Source: Escherichia phage vB_EcoM_Schickermooser. Taken from it: DNA of 64,000 bases. The stretch lies in sequence record NC_048196.1; one strand, written 5' to 3'. Within the stretch, counting starts at the first letter, position 1. Each line of letters begins with the position of its first letter. The notes beneath the pieces were generated by a model. It was not told the DNA's origin and searched no databases. It saw only the letters and a list, made by a program, of their open reading frames with translations. Below are positions 5,207 through 64,000 of this stretch, in pieces. The position numbers and the translations under genes are program-made.

Positions 5207-7882
5207 ATGTTTCCAATTCCAATATTTACTATTATGACCAGCACTGGTGTCGTTCCTCTGCCAGCAGGTATTGTTAAAAAAGTAATCACTCTAGATTACC
5301 CAGATAATGCTGGCAATTCTAATAGCAGTTTAGCAATTTTGCTTAATGATGGTAGATTGTTTACTCAAGGCGCAAACCTTTTTGGTGAGATTGCAGATGG
5401 AACTCGTAGTGCACGATTCAATAATTTCCACTTAGCTTCTACTGTAGTAGCGGATGTGTTTACCGCAGATCGTTGTTTTGTTATTAAAACTAACAGTGGG
5501 GGATGGCAATATTCAGGATTGACAGCAGGGTTGGTAGGATCTATAGCAGCAGGTGGTACGGATGCATGTGTAACCACTTGGACCAGCTTTCCATCTGTAA
5601 TAACAGGGACTATCTCTTTAGCCAATCTTAAAGAGGTTAAGGGAGGATATAACAATACTCTCTGGTTAATGAATAGTGGTGTTCTTTATGGATCGGGTCA
5701 AAACACAGTAGGCAGTTTAGGTGCAAGCACTACTAACGAAGTTTCTACTCCTCGTCAGATAACAAGCGCAGCAGTTGCTTTTGATGCAGGTTACAACCAA
5801 TGTTCTTATGTCAACAATGTGGGAACCTTGCGTGTTTGTGGAGCCAGTAAAGGTTTAGCAGGTAATAATAACACAACAACAGCTTTTGTCAATGCCAAGA
5901 TATCCGCTACTGAAACAGTGTATGTCAAAGATTACATCAATACAGTTTCCCAGACAATAGTTGTAGGAGATACCTCCGGTGGCACGGGTACAGTAAACTA
6001 CTTATATGTTAGATCTAATACAGAAACAACCTACACTAAACTGGATACCTTTGCAGCAGGTTTCTCAACATGGAAGTTTCCACCAAGCCGCCACTCTTTT
6101 TTCGTTGGGATTAATAATTCCTTGTGGGCTATTGGTAAGAACTACACTGCAAACTTAGGTTTGGGGTATGATTCTGCGAGCGGAGATCCACTCCAAGTGG
6201 GAAAACCAGTTAAACCTGAAGGAGTGGGTTCTTGGGATATAAACAAGCTCACAAGCGTTCATACGCTGAATATGGATGTTACTAACCAATTAGGTTATCA
6301 AGGAACCTTTTTCGTTTATAATGGAGATATGTATTATTCCGGTATTTGGAAAGATGGGAAAGCCTCGTATCTGTTCAATAGTGGTCTAAACTATAATAAA
6401 TTCACACCAATAGCAAGCTCCGTGATTACGGGCGATATTCTGGCAACTGGCTTAACTACAGATTCTTTAGGAATTTGTATTGTAGGTGGAACTAAACAGT
6501 TGACACATTCTGTTAGCCCAGAAGGAGGTAAACTTTTCAATATTAAATACACTTCTTCTGCCCCTGCAAACATGACAATATCATCTACTGGTTTAATGAC
6601 TTTCCATGCAGAAGGTGGTTTTGATGCAGGTATGACAGCCTTAAACGCTGAAGGAACAACTTTATCAGATACCTCTGGAGGATATGCTTCAACATTGAGC
6701 GTTTACACCCCTAGCTTATCTGCGATGGATGTAGGAACAACACAAACAATGGTAGCAGAAATAACGCCAACAGGAGCAGCAAGCTTACCTGGTATGGTTG
6801 TTGAGTATTTCTCTAATGACCCTACGGTAGCAACAGTTGACCCCGTTACAGGCGTTATTACAGCGGTTGCTGATGGGGATTGTCGTATCGGTTGTAGAGC
6901 AACTTATCAAGGTGTGGTAACTGCCGAAGATAGTTCTTATCTCGCAGTGAATGCTGTGGTGATTGTGATGGACTATGATTTGACGCAAGAAACTATTCCA
7001 ACGGATGTAAAGGTCAATAGGAGTAACCGTTATGCCAGGGCTTCTGGAGATATCCTTGTACCTACAGAGAGTTCTGCTCCCGTAGCACCTTTAGAATATG
7101 TTGGTACAACTCCACAAGGTAGACGTGTTGTAGCAGCCAACCGTACACATATCTTTATCAACAATAACTTGACAACAGCTTCCCCGTGGTTGAAGACGAA
7201 CTTGACAGTCACAGCATCAACAATCAACTCTCCGGTTGGAACTACGGCTAACACTTACAAGTTAACACCTTCTACAACTTCAGGACAACATATTTTATCA
7301 GCAGTGAATACAGCCTCTGATATTACAGCAGGTAAGCACTGGGCGGCATCCGTATTCTTGAAGACAGACGGGATCACTAAAGTTAAACTCAAATTGACTT
7401 CAGGAGATGAGATTAACGAAGGGACTTATGATCTTGTAGCTGGAACATTTACAGGTGCAGATGCAAACATAATCGATATGGGGAATGGTTGGTATCGTGT
7501 AATTCTACACAAAGTGACAGTTGCCAAACAAGCATCTATAACCTATGAGATTATAGCTTTGAATGCAAGTGGATCAGACACTTTCGCAGGAGATGGTACG
7601 GCAGGTCTTATTGCTTGGGTTCCACAGCTTGAGATGGGTGATATGACAAATCCAGTTTGGGCGGGGACACCATTTGTTTGTTCTTATGCACGAGACACTA
7701 CCAGTGCTGTTACCTTCACTATTCCTAAGAATGGACATACTGGCGTGGACATTTACCACACCGATGGTACTGTGCAACGAGAGGTCTTCACTGGTACAGC
7801 TACAACTTGGATGTTGACGTTCACCGCCGCAAGTGCGGATTGGGGATCGAAGTTCATTACAGGTTTGAAATATTACGACTAA
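5207..7882 (+). CDS. tail fibre protein with Ig-like (Big_2-type) domain (891 aa)
   Basis: Ser/Thr/Gly/Asn-rich fibre-like composition; segment AEITPTGAASLPGMVVEYFSNDPTVATVDPVTGVITAVADGDCRIGCRATYQGVVTAEDSSYLAVNAVV resembles bacterial Ig-like group 2 domains; GGAGGG RBS. Confidence 0.7.
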   Translation: MFPIPIFTIMTSTGVVPLPAGIVKKVITLDYPDNAGNSNSSLAILLNDGRLFTQGANLFGEIADGTRSARFNNFHLASTVVADVFTADRCFVIKTNSGGWQYSGLTAGLVGSIAAGGTDACVTTWTSFPSVITGTISLANLKEVKGGYNNTLWLMNSGVLYGSGQNTVGSLGASTTNEVSTPRQITSAAVAFDAGYNQCSYVNNVGTLRVCGASKGLAGNNNTTTAFVNAKISATETVYVKDYINTVSQTIVVGDTSGGTGTVNYLYVRSNTETTYTKLDTFAAGFSTWKFPPSRHSFFVGINNSLWAIGKNYTANLGLGYDSASGDPLQVGKPVKPEGVGSWDINKLTSVHTLNMDVTNQLGYQGTFFVYNGDMYYSGIWKDGKASYLFNSGLNYNKFTPIASSVITGDILATGLTTDSLGICIVGGTKQLTHSVSPEGGKLFNIKYTSSAPANMTISSTGLMTFHAEGGFDAGMTALNAEGTTLSDTSGGYASTLSVYTPSLSAMDVGTTQTMVAEITPTGAASLPGMVVEYFSNDPTVATVDPVTGVITAVADGDCRIGCRATYQGVVTAEDSSYLAVNAVVIVMDYDLTQETIPTDVKVNRSNRYARASGDILVPTESSAPVAPLEYVGTTPQGRRVVAANRTHIFINNNLTTASPWLKTNLTVTASTINSPVGTTANTYKLTPSTTSGQHILSAVNTASDITAGKHWAASVFLKTDGITKVKLKLTSGDEINEGTYDLVAGTFTGADANIIDMGNGWYRVILHKVTVAKQASITYEIIALNASGSDTFAGDGTAGLIAWVPQLEMGDMTNPVWAGTPFVCSYARDTTSAVTFTIPKNGHTGVDIYHTDGTVQREVFTGTATTWMLTFTAASADWGSKFITGLKYYD

Positions 7883-49526: not shown

Positions 49527-49562
49527 AGGCTCCTACAGCACCGTAGAGAGCCTGTTATTTTG
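49527..49562 (+). terminator. rho-independent terminator after NADAR gene
   Basis: GGCTCCTAC-AGCACC-GTAGAGAGCC stem followed by TGTTATTTTG. Confidence 0.55.
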
Positions 49563-49715
49563 TCCTATACAAACCCTTGTCTTTTTCAGTTTGCATCACT
49601 AGGATTCGATCTGAGTGGGTTCCTGAAGGTTTACCAATAAGATTAAAGGTTATATCAAATTCCCACTATCTTTTATCTCAAAAATCCCTCAAATTATTTA
49701 AACTTTTTAAGAATT

Positions 49716-49900
49716 TACAAAAGTGAAAGTTGAAAACCAAAATTTAAAGTTTAGGAAAATTATCTTAAAATGTTAGATACAAAACAAAACTCAAAAGTCA
49801 AGGAAAATTTTAAAAATTTTGCGCGCCCACAGTATTTAAAGTTTTTTTGCTTTTACAAAAATGAAAGTACAAAAGCAAAATTTAAAGTTTACAAAAATTT
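49716..49900. repeat. degenerate A-rich tandem repeats (~68-bp period, about 3 copies)
   Basis: TACAAAAGTGAAAGTTGAAAACCAAAATTTAAAGTTTAGGAAAATT recurs as TACAAAAATGAAAGTACAAAAGCAAAATTTAAAGTTTACAAAAATT, with a partial copy between. Confidence 0.6.
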
Positions 49901-49941
49901 TTATGCAGGTGAAAATGAGAAGAGTTCTCATATGGAAATGC

Positions 49942-50021
49942 AAATGATAATGATTCGCATTTAAGTTTATAAATGAGAATGATTGTCATTTACCTTATTA
50001 AATAAGAATCAATCTCATTTA
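49942..50021. repeat. three 22-bp iteron-like direct repeats at 29-bp spacing
   Basis: AAATGATAATGATTCGCATTTA (49942), AAATGAGAATGATTGTCATTTA (49971), AAATAAGAATCAATCTCATTTA (50000); each is an internal imperfect palindrome; first copy loosely resembles a Fur box. Confidence 0.65.
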
Positions 50022-50280
50022 GAGAATGACGCGCAGGGGCGGTGTTTGTCTCGCGCTCCCGTGTCCCCTCGCCATGTAATAAGAATAACAGATCCAGCCA
50101 GGAAAGCAAGCGATTATTTTATCTTTACATTTCTTTACAAATATATAGCGCCCAGCCTACCGGCGATCAACCTTCCAACCAGTGCCCCCTGGTATGTTAG
50201 CCCCGCCTTTACGCCGTGGGGGTGGCGCTTCCTCTTCTGTATGTAAAACAGTATAAGCCCGATCCCTGGGCTTGTCAAGA

Positions 50281-50544
50281 TTATTTTTTGTTTTCTTGCC
50301 AGGATAGGACACCTAACCAAAAATACATATCGCCCCGCGCCCCTGGTGGTATCTTGCTTTCCCCGCCGCCACTGCAAGCCCATAGATAACCATTTGCGAA
50401 CGTATCAAAATGATCTATTTCTTCCACCCTATGATCGCCCAGGTTGAGAACTGTTTCAACCTTTAAGCCCGTTGCGCTTGCTACCTGGTGCACCGTGCCG
50501 CCTTGCCAGCCCAATGAGTGCATAAGGTGTAATGTAGTTGTCAT
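50281..50544 (-). CDS. possible ORF (87 aa) in GC-rich intergenic segment
   Basis: Only candidate ORF in an otherwise non-coding GC-rich stretch; no convincing RBS; may not be a gene. Confidence 0.2.
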   Translation of the reverse strand: MTTTLHLMHSLGWQGGTVHQVASATGLKVETVLNLGDHRVEEIDHFDTFANGYLWACSGGGESKIPPGARGDMYFWLGVLSWQENKK

Positions 50545-50652
50545 GGTATCGCCCTTTCTTTGTTGTGCGCCCTGGTTGGCGCGGTAGAAAGATAATAGCC
50601 CTTTTCTTTATATATAGCAAGCAAAAAGAAAATAAAAAAGATTGAAAAATGG

Positions 50653-59722: not shown

Positions 59723-60022
59723 ATGGAAACTATCGCTATTGTTACCGTAGAAAAACTGGTTGTTGGTGACGTATTCGCGTTAATGGTGCCTAACAGCAGC
59801 AAGCTGGGCGCTTATGAAGTGATGGACCATAAAAATGAATCATTTGGCGACGGTTGCACAATGGCGGTAAAATCTTTGAAGGATGGAATCACCCGCCAGG
59901 CTAACTGGCACAAAGGGAACCAGGTCGGTTTAATATCCGCTAATTTCTTGCCAGAAGAGCAAACGTTAGACCAACTATCAGGCGGTAAGACGTTAGCCGA
60001 ACTACTGGAAACAGCGATCTAA
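59723..60022 (+). CDS. hypothetical protein (99 aa)
   Basis: GAGGAA RBS. Confidence 0.55.
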   Translation: METIAIVTVEKLVVGDVFALMVPNSSKLGAYEVMDHKNESFGDGCTMAVKSLKDGITRQANWHKGNQVGLISANFLPEEQTLDQLSGGKTLAELLETAI

Positions 60023-60030
60023 TCAACAAA

Positions 60031-60046
60031 GGGGCGGCAACGCCCC
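60031..60046 (+). terminator. hairpin GGGGCG-GCAA-CGCCCC (no U-tract)
   Basis: 6-bp GC stem with GCAA tetraloop after gene stop; function uncertain. Confidence 0.35.
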
Positions 60047-60067
60047 ACATCAGGAAGGGAAAAGATT

Positions 60068-60304
60068 ATGAGTATTGCAACAGTATTAACCGCCGTTAAA
60101 ACCGCTGAATCATCCGGCTTACATGTTGAGCTTATAGATCAACCAGGTGGCGATCTCCTTGTCCAGGTTTACCCGCCGAAAGTAGGGGATGATTATTATT
60201 GGGCTTATTCTGATACGTTCGAACAAGTAGACACGAAAGCGGTAACAGCCTTTATTTTAAAAGCCGTTGAAGAAAATAACTTTCATCATAACATCAATCA
60301 ATAA
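60068..60304 (+). CDS. hypothetical protein (78 aa)
   Basis: AGGAAGGG RBS. Confidence 0.5.
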   Translation: MSIATVLTAVKTAESSGLHVELIDQPGGDLLVQVYPPKVGDDYYWAYSDTFEQVDTKAVTAFILKAVEENNFHHNINQ

Positions 60305-60339
60305 CGCCCCATTAAACGCAATAGGAAGAGGATAGACAC

Positions 60340-60630
60340 ATGAAAAAGATGATCGCAGTAGTTGCCCTGGTTGTTGGTATTAACGCGCCTGTAATGGCTA
60401 ACGATTTGCCGGAATCGATCACGTTAACCGATATCAACGCAGTAAACCGGATCGGTGTTAATTATCGCCTATGCCTTGCCGCTAAAACTTTTAAGGACGG
60501 GGAAACAGAATACCACGGATTCGAGGGAGTCCGGTGCGGTGAGCTTGCACGCGACCTTAAGGAAGATCCAGACCTTGAGGCCATACCGATGACCGTAAAC
60601 GGTAAAGCTTACGTAAACCGCCAACAATGA
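60340..60630 (+). CDS. putative secreted protein (96 aa)
   Basis: GGAAGAGG RBS; signal peptide MKKMIAVVALVVGINAPVMA. Confidence 0.55.
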   Translation: MKKMIAVVALVVGINAPVMANDLPESITLTDINAVNRIGVNYRLCLAAKTFKDGETEYHGFEGVRCGELARDLKEDPDLEAIPMTVNGKAYVNRQQ

Positions 60631-60641
60631 GAAAGGTAATC

Positions 60642-60761
60642 ATGACAATGGGGATCATAGTAGCAACGCTGGCGCTAATCCCCTTCCTGATTAGATATGT
60701 GATAGTAGATCTGGTCCTGGTTATTAGTGACCTGCTATCTTCCATCGGCACACTATTTTAA
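60642..60761 (+). CDS. small membrane peptide (39 aa; not in ORF track)
   Basis: Hand-translated MTMGIIVATLALIPFLIRYVIVDLVLVISDLLSSIGTLF; AAGG RBS. Confidence 0.4.
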   Translation: MTMGIIVATLALIPFLIRYVIVDLVLVISDLLSSIGTLF

Positions 60762-60770
60762 GGGTACATC

Positions 60771-60962
60771 ATGAACGTGGAACAAGTTAGAAAGGTATTA
60801 GCAGCGTTACGCTATCACAACTATAGCAAGGTTAAGAATGATCCTGATTATGTGGATTCAAGCCTGGAAGAAGACACATTGCAAGCTATAAGCCATATGC
60901 AAGAATTGCTTAAGCGTATGACAGAGAAAAACAGATCTGATTATATAGGTGACGAGATCTAA
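60771..60962 (+). CDS. hypothetical small protein (63 aa)
   Basis: AAGGG RBS. Confidence 0.5.
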   Translation: MNVEQVRKVLAALRYHNYSKVKNDPDYVDSSLEEDTLQAISHMQELLKRMTEKNRSDYIGDEI

Positions 60963-60968
60963 AATAGC

Positions 60969-61026
60969 TTGCACAATGTATCTGATAGTGTAAGATGTAT
61001 CACGTAGGGCGGCAATGGTGCCGCTC
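60969..61026 (+). promoter_or_regulatory. promoter-hairpin cassette (TTGCAC-16-TAAGAT, hairpin GGGCGGCAATGGTGCCGC)
   Basis: Same architecture. Confidence 0.6.
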
Positions 61027-61046
61027 ACAACTGGAAGGAAAACACC

Positions 61047-61250
61047 ATGACTACAGCTAACCGCCTGATCGCCGTCCTGAACAAAGCAAAGGCTAACCGC
61101 CTGGATGTTCAAATCAAAGAGCAAGCAAATGGCGAGATCCTTGCTACGGTGTCCGATGGCGGTTATGTATCGGAATCATTTTTATCAGGGAGCTTAGATC
61201 ATCTTGTTTGGAAATTAGAAATTACCGTGGAGGATATGCAGATCATCTAA
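61047..61250 (+). CDS. hypothetical small protein (67 aa)
   Basis: GGAAGGA RBS. Confidence 0.55.
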   Translation: MTTANRLIAVLNKAKANRLDVQIKEQANGEILATVSDGGYVSESFLSGSLDHLVWKLEITVEDMQII

Positions 61251-61255
61251 TCTTT

Positions 61256-61288
61256 ACAAAACAGGGCTTGTTTTTGTCCTGTTTTTTG
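61256..61288 (+). terminator. terminator-like hairpin AACAGG...CCTGTT followed by T6
   Basis: Inverted repeat with large loop followed by TTTTTTGTT. Confidence 0.5.
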
Positions 61289-61424
61289 TTATGCTTATTG
61301 AACGGGCGGCACTGGCAACGGGGGAGGTAATCACCGGACGACCCCGCTATATATTGATAGCTAACACCTATCAAACAACAAAACATCAAAGAGATAAACT
61401 ATCAAATCTTTACAATTCTACCTA

Positions 61425-61483
61425 TTGACACCGGATCACCCTTATATTATTATTTATCACGTAGGGCGGGAATGTTTCCCGCC
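61425..61483 (+). promoter_or_regulatory. promoter-hairpin cassette (TTGACA-17-TATTAT, hairpin GGGCGGGAATGTTTCCCGCC)
   Basis: Same architecture. Confidence 0.65.
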
Positions 61484-61501
61484 TGATTTAGGAGTCACAT
61501 C

Positions 61502-61735
61502 ATGATCGAACAAATTAAAAGCACTAAACCGAACGTTAACGGCAATGTTTCACACTTTATCGGTGATAATGAAAAAGGCACACCATACGCCGCCGTAACC
61601 GTTCAACCGAACGGGGATTATTGGTTTACCGTTTACGGATCTTATTCCTTTGGACGTTCGGCACATGATAAGATCTTGCAAGCGGTTAAGCCTACAGGGA
61701 AGAATATCACAGCAGAAAAATTTTATAAAAAATAG
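61502..61735 (+). CDS. hypothetical small protein (77 aa)
   Basis: AGGAG RBS. Confidence 0.55.
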   Translation: MIEQIKSTKPNVNGNVSHFIGDNEKGTPYAAVTVQPNGDYWFTVYGSYSFGRSAHDKILQAVKPTGKNITAEKFYKK

Positions 61736-61736
61736 C

Positions 61737-61796
61737 TTGCTTTATACACCCTGTTAACTTATAGTTATTGCGTAGGGCAAGCAATACAGCAAGCCC
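61737..61796 (+). promoter_or_regulatory. promoter-hairpin cassette variant (TTGCTT-17-TATAGT, TAGGGCAAGCAATACAGCAAGCCC)
   Basis: Degenerate copy: only a 4-bp stem remains. Confidence 0.45.
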
Positions 61797-61813
61797 ACAA
61801 AGAGGAAAAGAAG

Positions 61814-62182
61814 ATGAGCAAATCAGCAATTAAAGCAGTTGAAAAAGCGCAAGAAGTGATCGCAACGTCCACCACTGGCGCAAAGGTTAATCTCGTTGGT
61901 TATCTGACAGATGAAACTATCCGTAAAAATTGGCGCAACGCTGATTTACTGGCTTGCTTATTGATTAATAGTGTCGCTGATGCTTTCCAGTGTGAAACAG
62001 CCGAGAGCTTGGAGGAAAACTTGTTTGATAATATGGATCAAGCCATTGAAACCTATATACAGTCAAACCTGGATAGCTGGAACAGTAAAACATGGCCTGA
62101 CAGCTTACGCGATACAACTGATCAACTGATCCGCCTTGCCTTGATGGTTGAACGCGATAACGTTCACAACCGCACAAAGTAA
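61814..62182 (+). CDS. hypothetical protein (122 aa)
   Basis: AGAGGAAAAG RBS. Confidence 0.55.
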   Translation: MSKSAIKAVEKAQEVIATSTTGAKVNLVGYLTDETIRKNWRNADLLACLLINSVADAFQCETAESLEENLFDNMDQAIETYIQSNLDSWNSKTWPDSLRDTTDQLIRLALMVERDNVHNRTK

Positions 62183-62190
62183 GATTATAC

Positions 62191-62215
62191 AAGGGCGCGC
62201 ACTAAGCGCCCTTTA
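62191..62215 (+). terminator. terminator-like hairpin AAGGGCGC-GCACTAA-GCGCCCTT
   Basis: 8-bp GC-rich stem; weak U-tract; shares the GGGCGC core with terminators at 56099 and 62757. Confidence 0.55.
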
Positions 62216-62241
62216 ACGTAAAGAGATGTAAATAATGCGCT

Positions 62242-62276
62242 ATCCCCTATTGACAGGGGATCGGCGTTATATTATA
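62242..62276 (+). promoter_or_regulatory. promoter TTGACA-17-TATATT with palindrome ATCCCCT-ATTGAC-AGGGGAT spanning the -35
   Basis: Inverted repeat 62242-62261 encloses the -35 hexamer; operator-like. Confidence 0.5.
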
Positions 62277-62323
62277 TTTAACTCACTGGCAGCAAACAAC
62301 GAAATGAAACAAAGGATAACAAC

Positions 62324-62743
62324 ATGAACATTAAATCAAATAATCCGGCTTACTCTTTCGATAATGCTTTTTGTCACGGGAGCGCCGCTAAAGGCTTCGA
62401 AATTGATGGTAAGCTGGTTATTGTGAACGTTGACGGGGAAGAGGTTGCAGTATATCCGGCAAACGATGTTAAAAGCCGTTTACAGTGCCGCATGGATGTT
62501 ACCGCGTATCAGCTTGATCCGATCCGTGTAGTTGCCCTGGTCCTGGAGGAAGAGATCAAAGCAATGCATCATAGCAATAAGTTTATTGGTGACGCGCAGG
62601 ACAATATGAAAGTATGCCGCAGTAAAGTTAACGAAGCATTGAAAGAATACGGTTTTAAGGATCTGATGATTAAACGTGATGAAAAATTCCGTTTTCGTAA
62701 TGACCTGGCGAACCGGATCTACTCAATCTATGAAGCGTTATAA
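62324..62743 (+). CDS. hypothetical protein (139 aa)
   Basis: AAGG RBS; last recognisable gene before the non-coding terminal region. Confidence 0.55.
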   Translation: MNIKSNNPAYSFDNAFCHGSAAKGFEIDGKLVIVNVDGEEVAVYPANDVKSRLQCRMDVTAYQLDPIRVVALVLEEEIKAMHHSNKFIGDAQDNMKVCRSKVNEALKEYGFKDLMIKRDEKFRFRNDLANRIYSIYEAL

Positions 62744-62756
62744 TCGACAACAAAAC

Positions 62757-62786
62757 AAGGGGCGCACCAAGCGCCCTTTCTTTTTG
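62757..62786 (+). terminator. rho-independent terminator (AGGGGCGC-ACCAA-GCGCCCT + TTCTTTTT)
   Basis: Strong GC stem plus T-run immediately after the last gene. Confidence 0.8.
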
Positions 62787-63367
62787 CCCGAACAATGTTG
62801 ATAGATTCCACCTATGAAAAACCGACACAGAACAAAATTGCATAATTTGCGCTATCGAGCTAATCAACCATTAAACGAATAACCATACACCCCAGGGCAA
62901 CAGGCTGTTAGAGAGCTATTTAGAGCGGTTAAAATCGATCAACAACCAACAACAAACCATCAAAAACACGCTTTTCCTTCCTTTCCAGTGCAATGATAAC
63001 CATTATCATCTACCCTTGCGTATCTATGCAATATAAGTGCATAACTATAATGTTGATAATAGTTCGCAACAACTAACCAACCAACAACCTAAAACAATAA
63101 GCAAACTAATCATAATCAAAGGAATAATAGAAAGATGATTGATAACGATAAACAATCAAACCATGATGAATACTAAGCAAGATAACGATAACACGACAAA
63201 ACAACCAACTAACTAACGATAACAAACGAAACCATTAAAATAATAATTATTAGCAAAATAGTGCCTGAATGAAATCATTACAAAACGAATCATTCCCAGA
63301 GTCATCATTAGCACGCTATGCCGGACACATAGCGAGCTAATAATAAGCCAACTACACCCCAACAATC

Positions 63368-63422
63368 ATAACCATCGGTGATGGTTATTTCTTGTTACTG
63401 CGTAGCTTGCAATAATTGCAAG
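63368..63422. repeat. palindromes in non-coding terminal region (ATAACCATCGGTGATGGTTAT; CTTGCAATAATTGCAAG)
   Basis: 21-bp perfect palindrome at 63368-63388 and 17-bp near-palindrome at 63406-63422. Confidence 0.5.
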
Positions 63423-64000
63423 CGTAATGACGCTTACACTTATTGCGCTGGCTTATTATTAGCATTATATGTAATTACCAAGATCATAACATTAGCGCAA
63501 TAACAATAATCATTGTAATAATTATGTAAGGAAATAATTAGCATGGCAATAATTATGGGGGCAATGGGAGGATGATTATCATCATTCCGATACATTGCAC
63601 ACTATGCACATAATAGAATAAAAGTCAATAATTTTGGGGGCGAAATGTTACCGCCACAGGCGGGAATGTTGAGCAAGTTCTCTTAAACGTAAATAAAATC
63701 AGAAAATTCTTGATTTATTTTAGTTTATATGTTAATAAACGTTTAAATAATAATCATTCTCATATAAATAATAGTCCGTCTGTCATGAGCGGGATTAGTT
63801 GACATTGTTCCGTCATATGATGAAGTTGCCAAACCATTGATAAATAAGTGTTTGTGTGATTTATAATCAAGTGGCCCACCTTGTCGCTACGTTGGCATGA
63901 GCCTTGCATAAGTCATTGAATACGAATGATAATTATTCTCATTCGCATGATATTTGGGAATTGTCGCTGCGTGGACCTGACGGCCCGAAAATTCGCGTTA

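Follow-up and report, generated by a model that had tools for sequence, protein, structure and literature searches.

A direct terminal repeat, Fur-box-like palindromes and a conserved structured element in the probable right-terminal non-coding region of the genome of Escherichia phage vB_EcoM_Schickermooser

Behind the last early operon of Escherichia phage vB_EcoM_Schickermooser, in a stretch of 64,000 nucleotides of record NC_048196.1 (the whole of which is called the window here), about 1.2 kb of DNA (62790-64000) carries no recognizable gene. The operon appears to stop at a rho-independent terminator on the plus strand (62757-62786; stem 62757-62779 plus a T-run), which is kept in all lineages compared and whose stem has the form of a terminator on either strand. 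A G-poor spacer, a structured element, a variable AT-rich spacer and, at the very end of the window, a direct terminal repeat (DTR) follow one another downstream. A preliminary description of this DNA had offered a packaging or terminase recognition site, a genome terminus or terminal-repeat boundary, and a second replication origin as candidate roles. The analysis reported here makes it very likely that the DNA in question forms the non-coding control region at the right end of a linear Phapecoctavirus genome and finishes in a DTR; that degree of confidence belongs to this core claim only, and the mechanisms suggested below for its parts are less certain.

Based on a megablast search of GenBank phage records, the segment 62700-64000 is matched by 71 records, all of them phAPEC8-like, and in 62 of these the match reaches at least 80% query cover at about 90-98% identity. 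The matching phages are phAPEC8-like myoviruses of the genus Phapecoctavirus (Stephanstirmvirinae), with genomes of about 150 kb. The counterpart in phAPEC8 is an annotated gene-free gap (5512-7022) between the terminator and the next gene, and the region considered here forms about 1.2 kb of this conserved non-coding gap of about 1.5 kb, the other 285 bp or so lying past the window end. The absence of genes noticed at the outset was borne out by the listing of open reading frames (ORFs): none of at least 60 amino acids (aa) is contained within 62790-64000, and the sole exception is a minus-strand ORF of 65 aa with a TTG start (62670-62867); it shares sequence with the upstream gene and the terminator and reaches 78 nt into the region. 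Ten ORFs of 25-51 aa were considered as genes and rejected; in phiWec186 and/or phi92/muut, stops or frameshifts interrupt each of them, whereas the motifs in the DNA itself are retained. Several overlapping coding sequences (CDSs) of 27-50 aa are annotated within the DTR and the gene-free gap of BI-EHEC and ETEC-TG and are unconserved elsewhere. Judging from the breakage of the 25-51-aa ORFs in phiWec186 and/or phi92/muut, these small CDSs are spurious over-calls.

The window closes with the right-end copy of the DTR (63672-64000), which was recognized by homology to the repeats of relatives and is 329 bp long, or 328 bp in some records. In BI-EHEC and Mt1B1_P17, whose records start and stop within the equivalent of the phAPEC8 gap, an exact 328-bp repeat is present at both record ends and corresponds to 63672-63999; an A follows the left copy, so that lengths of 328 and 329 bp are indistinguishable and the last A is ambiguous. 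The sequence 63672-64000 is identical at 316-318 of its 329 positions to the repeats of phAPEC8, BI-EHEC and Mt1B1_P17. In a search with the repeat only, WPEC1, WPEC2, WPEC4, WPEC6, Ro121lw and three NWU phages were found to start or stop on the same base, and this terminal base is used by at least ten records from several laboratories, including BI-EHEC and Mt1B1_P17. In phi92, which belongs to a different genus, the depositors annotated a left and a right DTR of 343 bp. The phi92 repeat begins with AGCC after TTTGTTG and finishes with CGCGTTA before AGCAC, and these boundary sequences are those found at 63667-63675 and 63994-64000. The final A of the window is the same A that closes the phi92 DTR, a coincidence hardly to be expected of a window placed at random, and for this reason we take the window to be the last 64 kb of the genome, ending at its right terminus.

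The literature agrees with this placement: a 328-bp terminal repeat has been reported for Phapecoctavirus Schickermooser (Korf 2019, PMC6563267), a 342-bp DTR for BME3 in a study that determined packaging with PhageTerm, and Stephanstirmvirinae genomes are said to end in DTRs in a 2025 paper; the publication on the NWU phages is silent on termini. Thus the candidate of a genome terminus or terminal-repeat boundary stands, with the DTR starting at 63672 inside the gene-free region and the window ending at the right terminus, and the comparison with genome ends of related phages, which had been proposed as a check, gave the same ends in at least ten records and in the second genus represented by phi92. 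The terminus itself was already known for this phage group, whereas for the arrangement of sites inside it and for the structured element we found no description.

The layout of the region is conserved across the divergent lineages compared, about 11 in number. Conserved motifs mark both boundaries of the repeat. The left one, TGTTG^AGCA (63667-63675, plus strand; the caret marks the cut), places the boundary between 63671 and 63672 and is kept in all lineages; the right one, CGCGTTA^ (63994-64000, plus strand), is followed in relatives by AGCAC and a small hairpin, which would lie beyond the window. Sixteen loci were collected from GenBank, IMG/VR and metagenomes, and in 14 of them the structured element is followed by (A/T)TGTTG^AGC(A/C) and AAAAT(T)CGCGTTA^AGCAC, with 329-353 bp from one to the other; one of the remaining two has other spacings and one is short of downstream sequence. 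The string GTTR^AGCM is common to both cuts in all lineages with enough sequence. Just outside the left boundary there is a small hairpin, CCGCC-ACA-GGCGG (CCGCCACAGGCGG, 63651-63663), that ends 8 nt before the DTR. A hairpin of 5-8 bp ending 5-9 nt before the left cut exists in eight of 11 lineages, and its stem is unrelated between them (CCGCC/GGCGG here, ATCGC/GCGAT in phAPEC8, AACCC/GGGTT in others); in most lineages the right cut, too, has small hairpins behind it. Because a hairpin of unrelated stem recurs at the same place, the CCGCC hairpin is by all appearances a conserved boundary element.

The earlier suggestion of a packaging or terminase site fits the conserved cut-site motifs and the hairpins that flank them, and recognition by terminase is inferred from that fit. 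As for the features on which the suggestion had been built, the CCGCC hairpin does stand at the repeat boundary, but the palindromes at 62994, 63368 and 63406 are not the terminus itself. In Klebsiella phage KP13-26, in muut and in one further locus (L028), the module made of the hairpin and TGTTG^AGC is repeated in tandem upstream of the DTR, giving two or three copies at spacings of 24-70 bp; the extra copies are possibly spare or decoy cut sites.

Within the repeat, the order of sites is the same across lineages: the left cut, a TCTTGATTT block, a Fur-like palindrome, an IHF core, a second palindrome and the right cut. The TCTTGATTT block, which holds a -35-like TTGATT, is invariant across genera in the cross-genus alignment. 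It forms part of a rightward sigma-70-like promoter candidate on the plus strand (63710-63738; TTGATT, a 17-nt spacer and TAATAA), which was read directly from the sequence, has a weak -10 and is absent from the list given by the promoter scan. A predicted IHF site, with the core consensus TATCAATGGTTTG = WATCAANNNNTTR on the minus strand (63830-63842), is located at the exact centre of the DTR. Of 12 lineages, 11 have an IHF core at the midpoint of the DTR, in which the specified bases are kept and the N positions vary.

The palindromes of the repeat belong to a larger set resembling operators of the host regulator Fur. Box A, TGATAACCATTATCA (62994-63008; halves TGATAAC and ATTATCA around a central C), matches 13 of 14 positions of the 7-1-7 Fur motif and 15 of 19 of the 19-mer, and has a counterpart at the equivalent position in nine other lineages; this 62994 palindrome is a predicted Fur-box-like operator. 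Further downstream, the palindrome ATGCAATATAAGTGCAT with a TATAAT hexamer (63046-63051) lies within 63025-63068, and a degenerate second box, TGATAATAGTTCGCA, occupies 63054-63068, the equivalent of which is strong in Justusliebigvirus (AATGATAATCATTCTTAAC, score 15.5). Box B (63748-63762) overlaps the predicted transcription start of the promoter candidate in the DTR and has a counterpart 83-110 bp past the left cut in every lineage, its phi92 version being AAATGATAATCATTATC, close to the Fur consensus GATAATGATAATCATTATC. Box C (63927-63941; halves TGATAAT and ATTCTCA around a central T) matches 13 of 14 positions of the 7-1-7 motif and is kept in all lineages, it and its counterparts standing 59-73 bp before the right cut.

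The 7-1-7 motif with at most two mismatches occurs eight times in the window against 0.68 expected, and four of the eight lie in the last 1.2 kb. Matches of at least 14/19 to the 19-mer consensus number nine in 62744-64000 (1.26 kb) against 0.16 in dinucleotide shuffles, a total reached by none of 500 shuffles; the other 62.7 kb of the window holds 12 such matches. The positions of the boxes are kept in ten lineages, with sequences drifting within the motif. When a matrix built from the phage boxes alone was applied to positions 600001-650000 of Escherichia coli K-12, its best four hits fell in three intergenic regions, fepB-entC (scores 21.0 and 14.0), fepA-fes (14.0) and fepD-entS (12.8), which are the well-known bidirectional promoters of the enterobactin cluster, repressed by Fur. 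Because the phage matrix picks these ent/fep regions, the positions are kept and consensus matches are enriched, the box motif is judged equivalent to the host Fur operator, to which Fur would bind. More speculatively, a leftward Fur-controlled promoter (-35 TTGCAT at 63032-63027, -10 within box A) might give a transcript of about 230 nt. In the literature searched, we found no relevant report of Fur boxes in phages and no published description of the Fur and IHF sites or the structured element of this region.

A second gene-free region of the window, 49560-50650, carries a tandem series of four palindromes resembling Fur boxes at 49913-50020 (AAATGAGAAGAGTTCTCAT, AAATGATAATGATTCGCATTT, AAATGAGAATGATTGTCATTT and AAATAAGAATCAATCTCATTT), spaced at about 29 bp. 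It also contains two copies of CAAAATTTAAAGTTTA about 140 bp apart, beyond which the DNA is GC-rich and offers no plausible gene, only ORFs of 64-91 aa that overlap on the two strands; this stretch extends up to 50689, where the first of the early-gene hairpin motifs stands.

Between the early operon and the DTR, a multi-helix element of about 165 nt (63300-63469) is conserved at 73-99% in all lineages, and 21 distinct sequences of it were aligned. RNAalifold predicted a hairpin H1 (63314-20/63328-34, loop CCGGACA) followed by a 15-bp helix (63336-50/63449-63) that closes a three-arm junction. Inside the junction are a CTAC/GTAG helix (63352-55/63402-05), H2, which is the palindrome ATAACCATCGGTGATGGTTAT (63368-63388, arms 63368-76/63380-88), P3, which is the palindrome CTTGCAATAATTGCAAG (63406-63422, arms 63406-12/63416-22), and P4 (63423-28/63442-47). 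In the covariance-model alignment, standard pairs fill 97.3% of the cells of 51 pairs, against 89.6% in shuffles (0 of 500 reached the observed value), and only 21-48% are paired when partners are slid by 1-3 columns. Fifteen pairs show changes on both sides, with a covariation score of 0.21 against at most 0.049 for slid partners, and the fold z-scores of the window sequence against shuffles are -7.1 on the plus strand and -8.5 on the minus strand. One-sided departures in the supported helices, read on the plus strand, give A.C in seven independent cases and G.T in one, and the consensus fold reaches -59.0 kcal/mol on the minus strand against -46.0 on the plus strand. The evidence therefore leans toward folding of the minus strand, either as RNA or as single-stranded DNA.

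The element is present in a single copy per genome, with no second copy in the window or in the loci. No Rfam 15 family matched 60000-64000 at E <= 1, and none reached its gathering score in the whole window. No promoter or terminator flanking the element is conserved across lineages on either strand, and this holds for sigma-70 promoters in particular. Exact-pattern scans of viral, metagenome and genome collections returned only Stephanstirmvirinae-like contigs and a few chance matches that were unconfirmed by profile (L013, L014, L016, L017, L026, L030, L031 and L033), and in the literature searched nothing relevant was found on transcriptomes of this subfamily. Judged by these sequence comparisons, the element is a candidate for a new structured nucleic-acid family limited to this subfamily. 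Its 3' segment TTATTGCG (within 63406-63447) can pair either with CGTAAT, which forms P4 and leaves the P3 hairpin intact, or with GCAATAA of the P3 5' arm, giving one long hairpin. Both pairings are kept by compensatory changes in phi92-like sequences, for which reason the element may switch between two folds.

The composition of the region is not uniform. The preliminary description had called the plus strand strongly A+C-rich; the skew is real but is limited to 62790-63300 and ends at about 63300, the A+C fraction being 0.657 in that part, 0.52 in 63301-63671 and 0.47 in 63672-64000. The most A+C-rich 500-nt stretch of the 64 kb falls in 62790-63300 (0.662, against a mean of 0.511 and a standard deviation of 0.033). 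Richness in palindromes, also claimed at first, is evident in nine hairpin-type inverted repeats with stems of at least 7 (a count that includes nested registers), compared with 1.4 +/- 1.6 in 300 dinucleotide shuffles, and in a density about five times that of the rest of the window. All of the sequences quoted at that stage are present, with two coordinates slightly off (62994 in place of 62993, and 63651 in place of 63641), and GATAACGATAA occurs twice, at 63141 and 63179.

Cross-lineage alignments revealed a conserved non-coding block just past the terminator (62790-62890), which includes, in order, GATGATAGnTTT, CCTAT, GAAAA, CACAG and AAAGTGAATAAATCGCGnTAT. Its portion 62790-62870 is conserved across the whole subfamily, and part of it matches, at 76%, phage TH18 (133.9 kb, probably a Vequintavirus) and the 54-kb record 18-1-2. 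A search of 62790-62995 for consensus secondary structure returned the terminator only, and no clear promoter was seen in 62790-62870. Then comes the G-poor, A/C-rich, low-complexity spacer (62930-63300, plus strand), with 10% G and a C/G ratio of about 2. The 300 nt before the structured element are G-poor on the plus strand in every lineage (5-11% G, C/G 1.7-3.4), the composition being kept while the sequence diverges, and the A/C tract is thus a separate, compositionally conserved spacer, distinct from the terminus. Because Rho uses C-rich, G-poor, unstructured transcripts, it is reasonable to suppose that this tract may serve, after the intrinsic terminator, as a second, Rho-dependent stop. 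On the other side of the element, a variable AT-rich spacer with ATTAGC(A) repeats (63470-63650) includes degenerate Fur-like half-sites (63499-63526 and 63568-63590) and a conserved G-run, TTTTGGGGGCGAA (63632-63644); the spacer is 190 to 465 bp long in the different lineages, and 185-460 bp separate the end of the element from the left cut.

Several points weigh against the interpretation of the region as a terminal control module. The window shows one genome end, and the same repeat at the other end is assumed from relatives; record ends are choices of depositors, and only some derive from read-start analysis. The case for Fur and IHF binding consists of motif matches. The promoters of the region all fall short of a strong consensus, and none is conserved beside the structured element, whose strand bias (seven A.C against one G.T) could reflect the A/C mutational skew of the plus strand. 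Finally, the boundary motifs are direct repeats, so that a strand-specific nickase would nick the same strand twice; therefore the staggered, opposite-strand nicks of the classical T7 scheme are not given by the motifs alone.

It is highly improbable that the record ends are assembly or deposition artefacts of a circularly permuted, headful-packaged genome, even though the phAPEC8 record begins 6.4 kb upstream, that of ESCO5 ends inside the repeat and ETEC-TG was deposited as circular: an exact overlap of 328 bp is not an assembler k-mer length, the same boundaries come from different laboratories and from another genus with conserved motifs at them, and DTRs of this size have been reported for Schickermooser (Korf 2019) and BME3. 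Headful packaging implies variable starts and no fixed ends, and here the ends recur among records and genera; lambda-like cohesive ends do not agree with the duplication of 328-343 bp that relatives carry at both termini. The second replication origin proposed at first, here considered as an AT-rich unwinding region with host-factor sites and hairpins for priming on single-stranded DNA, is improbable as well. A low GC content (0.345), the conserved IHF site, the repeated ATTAGC and a conserved multi-hairpin structure that could act as single-stranded DNA would all suit an origin. However, the region has no DnaA-box cluster, its one single-mismatch site being no more than is found elsewhere in the window, the cumulative GC skew turns near 43 kb, at a switch in gene orientation, with no inflection here, and the position of the IHF site, midway along the terminal repeat, is better suited to end processing.

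The roles of the boxes and of the structured element are more open to dispute. If the boxes were operators of a phage-encoded regulator and the region served early/late transcriptional control, the four boxes spaced by 29 bp at 49913-50020, upstream of the early gene block, would show just the arrangement expected; we nevertheless consider this unlikely, as the four best hits of the phage-box matrix within 50 kb of E. coli DNA are in the Fur-controlled ent/fep promoter regions, the boxes of phi92 and phiWec186 match the Fur 19-mer at up to 17/19, and no Fur homologue was found to be encoded in the window, which covers 64 of the roughly 150 kb of the genome. Somewhat less unlikely, yet still doubtful, is that the element is a non-coding RNA gene on the minus strand, running from 63469 to 63300 into the G/U-rich tract, and that its location at the genome end is incidental. 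The strong covariation in four helices, the better minus-strand fold with its z-score of -8.5, the seven independent one-sided changes that give G.U on that strand against one on the plus strand, and a minus-strand promoter-like site (63549-63521, 10/12 match) speak for such a gene. That site, however, is unconserved in other lineages, and on neither strand is the element followed by a terminator. Strands rich in G and U fold better in any case, and the same bias could arise from the A/C skew of the plus strand. Neither an Rfam family nor transcript data in the literature were found for the element, and its constant place upstream of the DTR in all lineages speaks for a connection with the terminus.

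Under the preferred interpretation, that of a genome end with a DTR, base 64000 would be the physical end of the packaged DNA, and packaging would follow a short-DTR, T7-like scheme in which replication yields concatemers with one repeat copy per junction. Terminase would recognize the two GTTR^AGCM copies that bound the repeat, each with a small hairpin on its outer side, and cut or nick at these motifs, after which DNA synthesis would duplicate the repeat and leave a copy at both virion ends. IHF at the centre may bend the repeat, so that its two boundaries, and likewise its two Fur boxes, come to lie next to each other, and Fur boxes over the rightward promoter candidate could tie transcription at the genome end to the iron status of the host. 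Before the 329-bp DTR, the conserved non-coding DNA that fills about 0.9 kb behind the presumed end of the early operon would contribute two cis-acting parts to the terminal module: the G-poor tract, possibly as a Rho-dependent transcription stop, and the structured element of about 165 nt, possibly as folded single-stranded DNA or RNA for duplication of the repeat, packaging or replication.

The DTRs of the Stephanstirmvirinae (328 bp in Schickermooser, 343 bp in phi92 and 342 bp in BME3) are homologous to the repeat described here and have the same boundaries, TGTTG^AGC and CGCGTTA^AGCAC, and the same layout of a last gene, about 0.9-1.1 kb of gene-free DNA and the repeat; the length of 329 bp agrees as well, and the present genome is one more member of this group, with no essential difference. 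In the published accounts consulted, these repeats are described by length only, with neither internal sites nor a structured element. The junction in T7 has a 160-bp terminal repeat, the short-repeat arrays SRL and SRR, nearby promoters and a proposed hairpin to the left of the right-end repeat. The end described here resembles it in having a short exact DTR in 1-1.5 kb of gene-poor DNA, adjoining low-complexity repeats, inverted repeats to the left of the right-end copy and, as a candidate, a promoter firing from the end. It differs in that there is no sequence similarity, the phage is a 150-kb myovirus using the host RNA polymerase, and the Fur and IHF motifs and the four-helix covarying element lack a counterpart in T7. 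In cosB of lambda, the IHF site I1 assists terminase assembly, and the 12-nt cohesive ends go with no terminal repeat. The two systems share a site for a host bending protein at a fixed distance from the terminase cut site (here, as a motif), whereas in the present case the IHF core has a cut site at equal distance on either side, the two cuts being about 330 bp from each other. The boxes have the same palindromic motif as the E. coli Fur operators (consensus GATAATGATAATCATTATC; bidirectional ent/fep promoters, which the phage matrix recovers), but here they are found in the genome of a virulent phage, within a terminal repeat and in a second gene-free region.

Other features of the window and of the records concern the region less directly. 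A 20-nt motif, GTAGGGCGGCAATGGTGCCG, occurs in 14 copies on the plus strand between 50689 and 61461 (nine exact, five with 1-4 mismatches), apparently before small early ORFs. It is annotated as a 'PHIRE promoter' in phAPEC8 and consists of a GC hairpin just downstream of sigma-70-like promoters; its appearance suggests a stem-loop at the 5' end of an RNA rather than a promoter. The gene-free region at the window end has zero copies of this hairpin motif, all 14 being located at 50.7-61.5 kb. Chi sites are absent from the 64-kb window, and ARAGORN found no tRNA or tmRNA in it; relatives are reported to have 10-13 tRNAs, and the cluster must lie in the remaining genome. The records of Campylobacter phage B15, Klebsiella phage ZCKP1 and 'Dompiswa phage' match the coliphage region at 92-96%, Campylobacter phage C3 is a phi92-like record with about 72% identity to the region, and one Acinetobacter-named and one Pseudomonas-named record also match; the host labels of some such records are doubtful.

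For annotation, the physical end of the genome is fixed by these results, and some GenBank records call small ORFs in this region that are to be regarded as spurious. Isolation of Phapecoctavirus and phi92-like phages as candidates for therapy is widespread, and the recognition of their genome ends has had no description; the cut-site motif, the central IHF site and the Fur boxes provide mutable targets for the study of packaging in a large short-DTR myovirus. Tentatively, and as a possibility well short of an even chance, the Stephanstirmvirinae end may be a nucleoprotein module built with host factors, in which an IHF-induced fold lets Fur operators and cut sites meet, early transcription responds to iron and ends are possibly processed, and in which the structured element, as a new folded RNA or single-stranded DNA, would act in cis and be needed for repeat duplication, packaging or replication. 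If host Fur does bind, a strictly virulent coliphage would read the iron status of its host, and this would bear on the performance of such phages in the iron-limited gut and in infected tissue.

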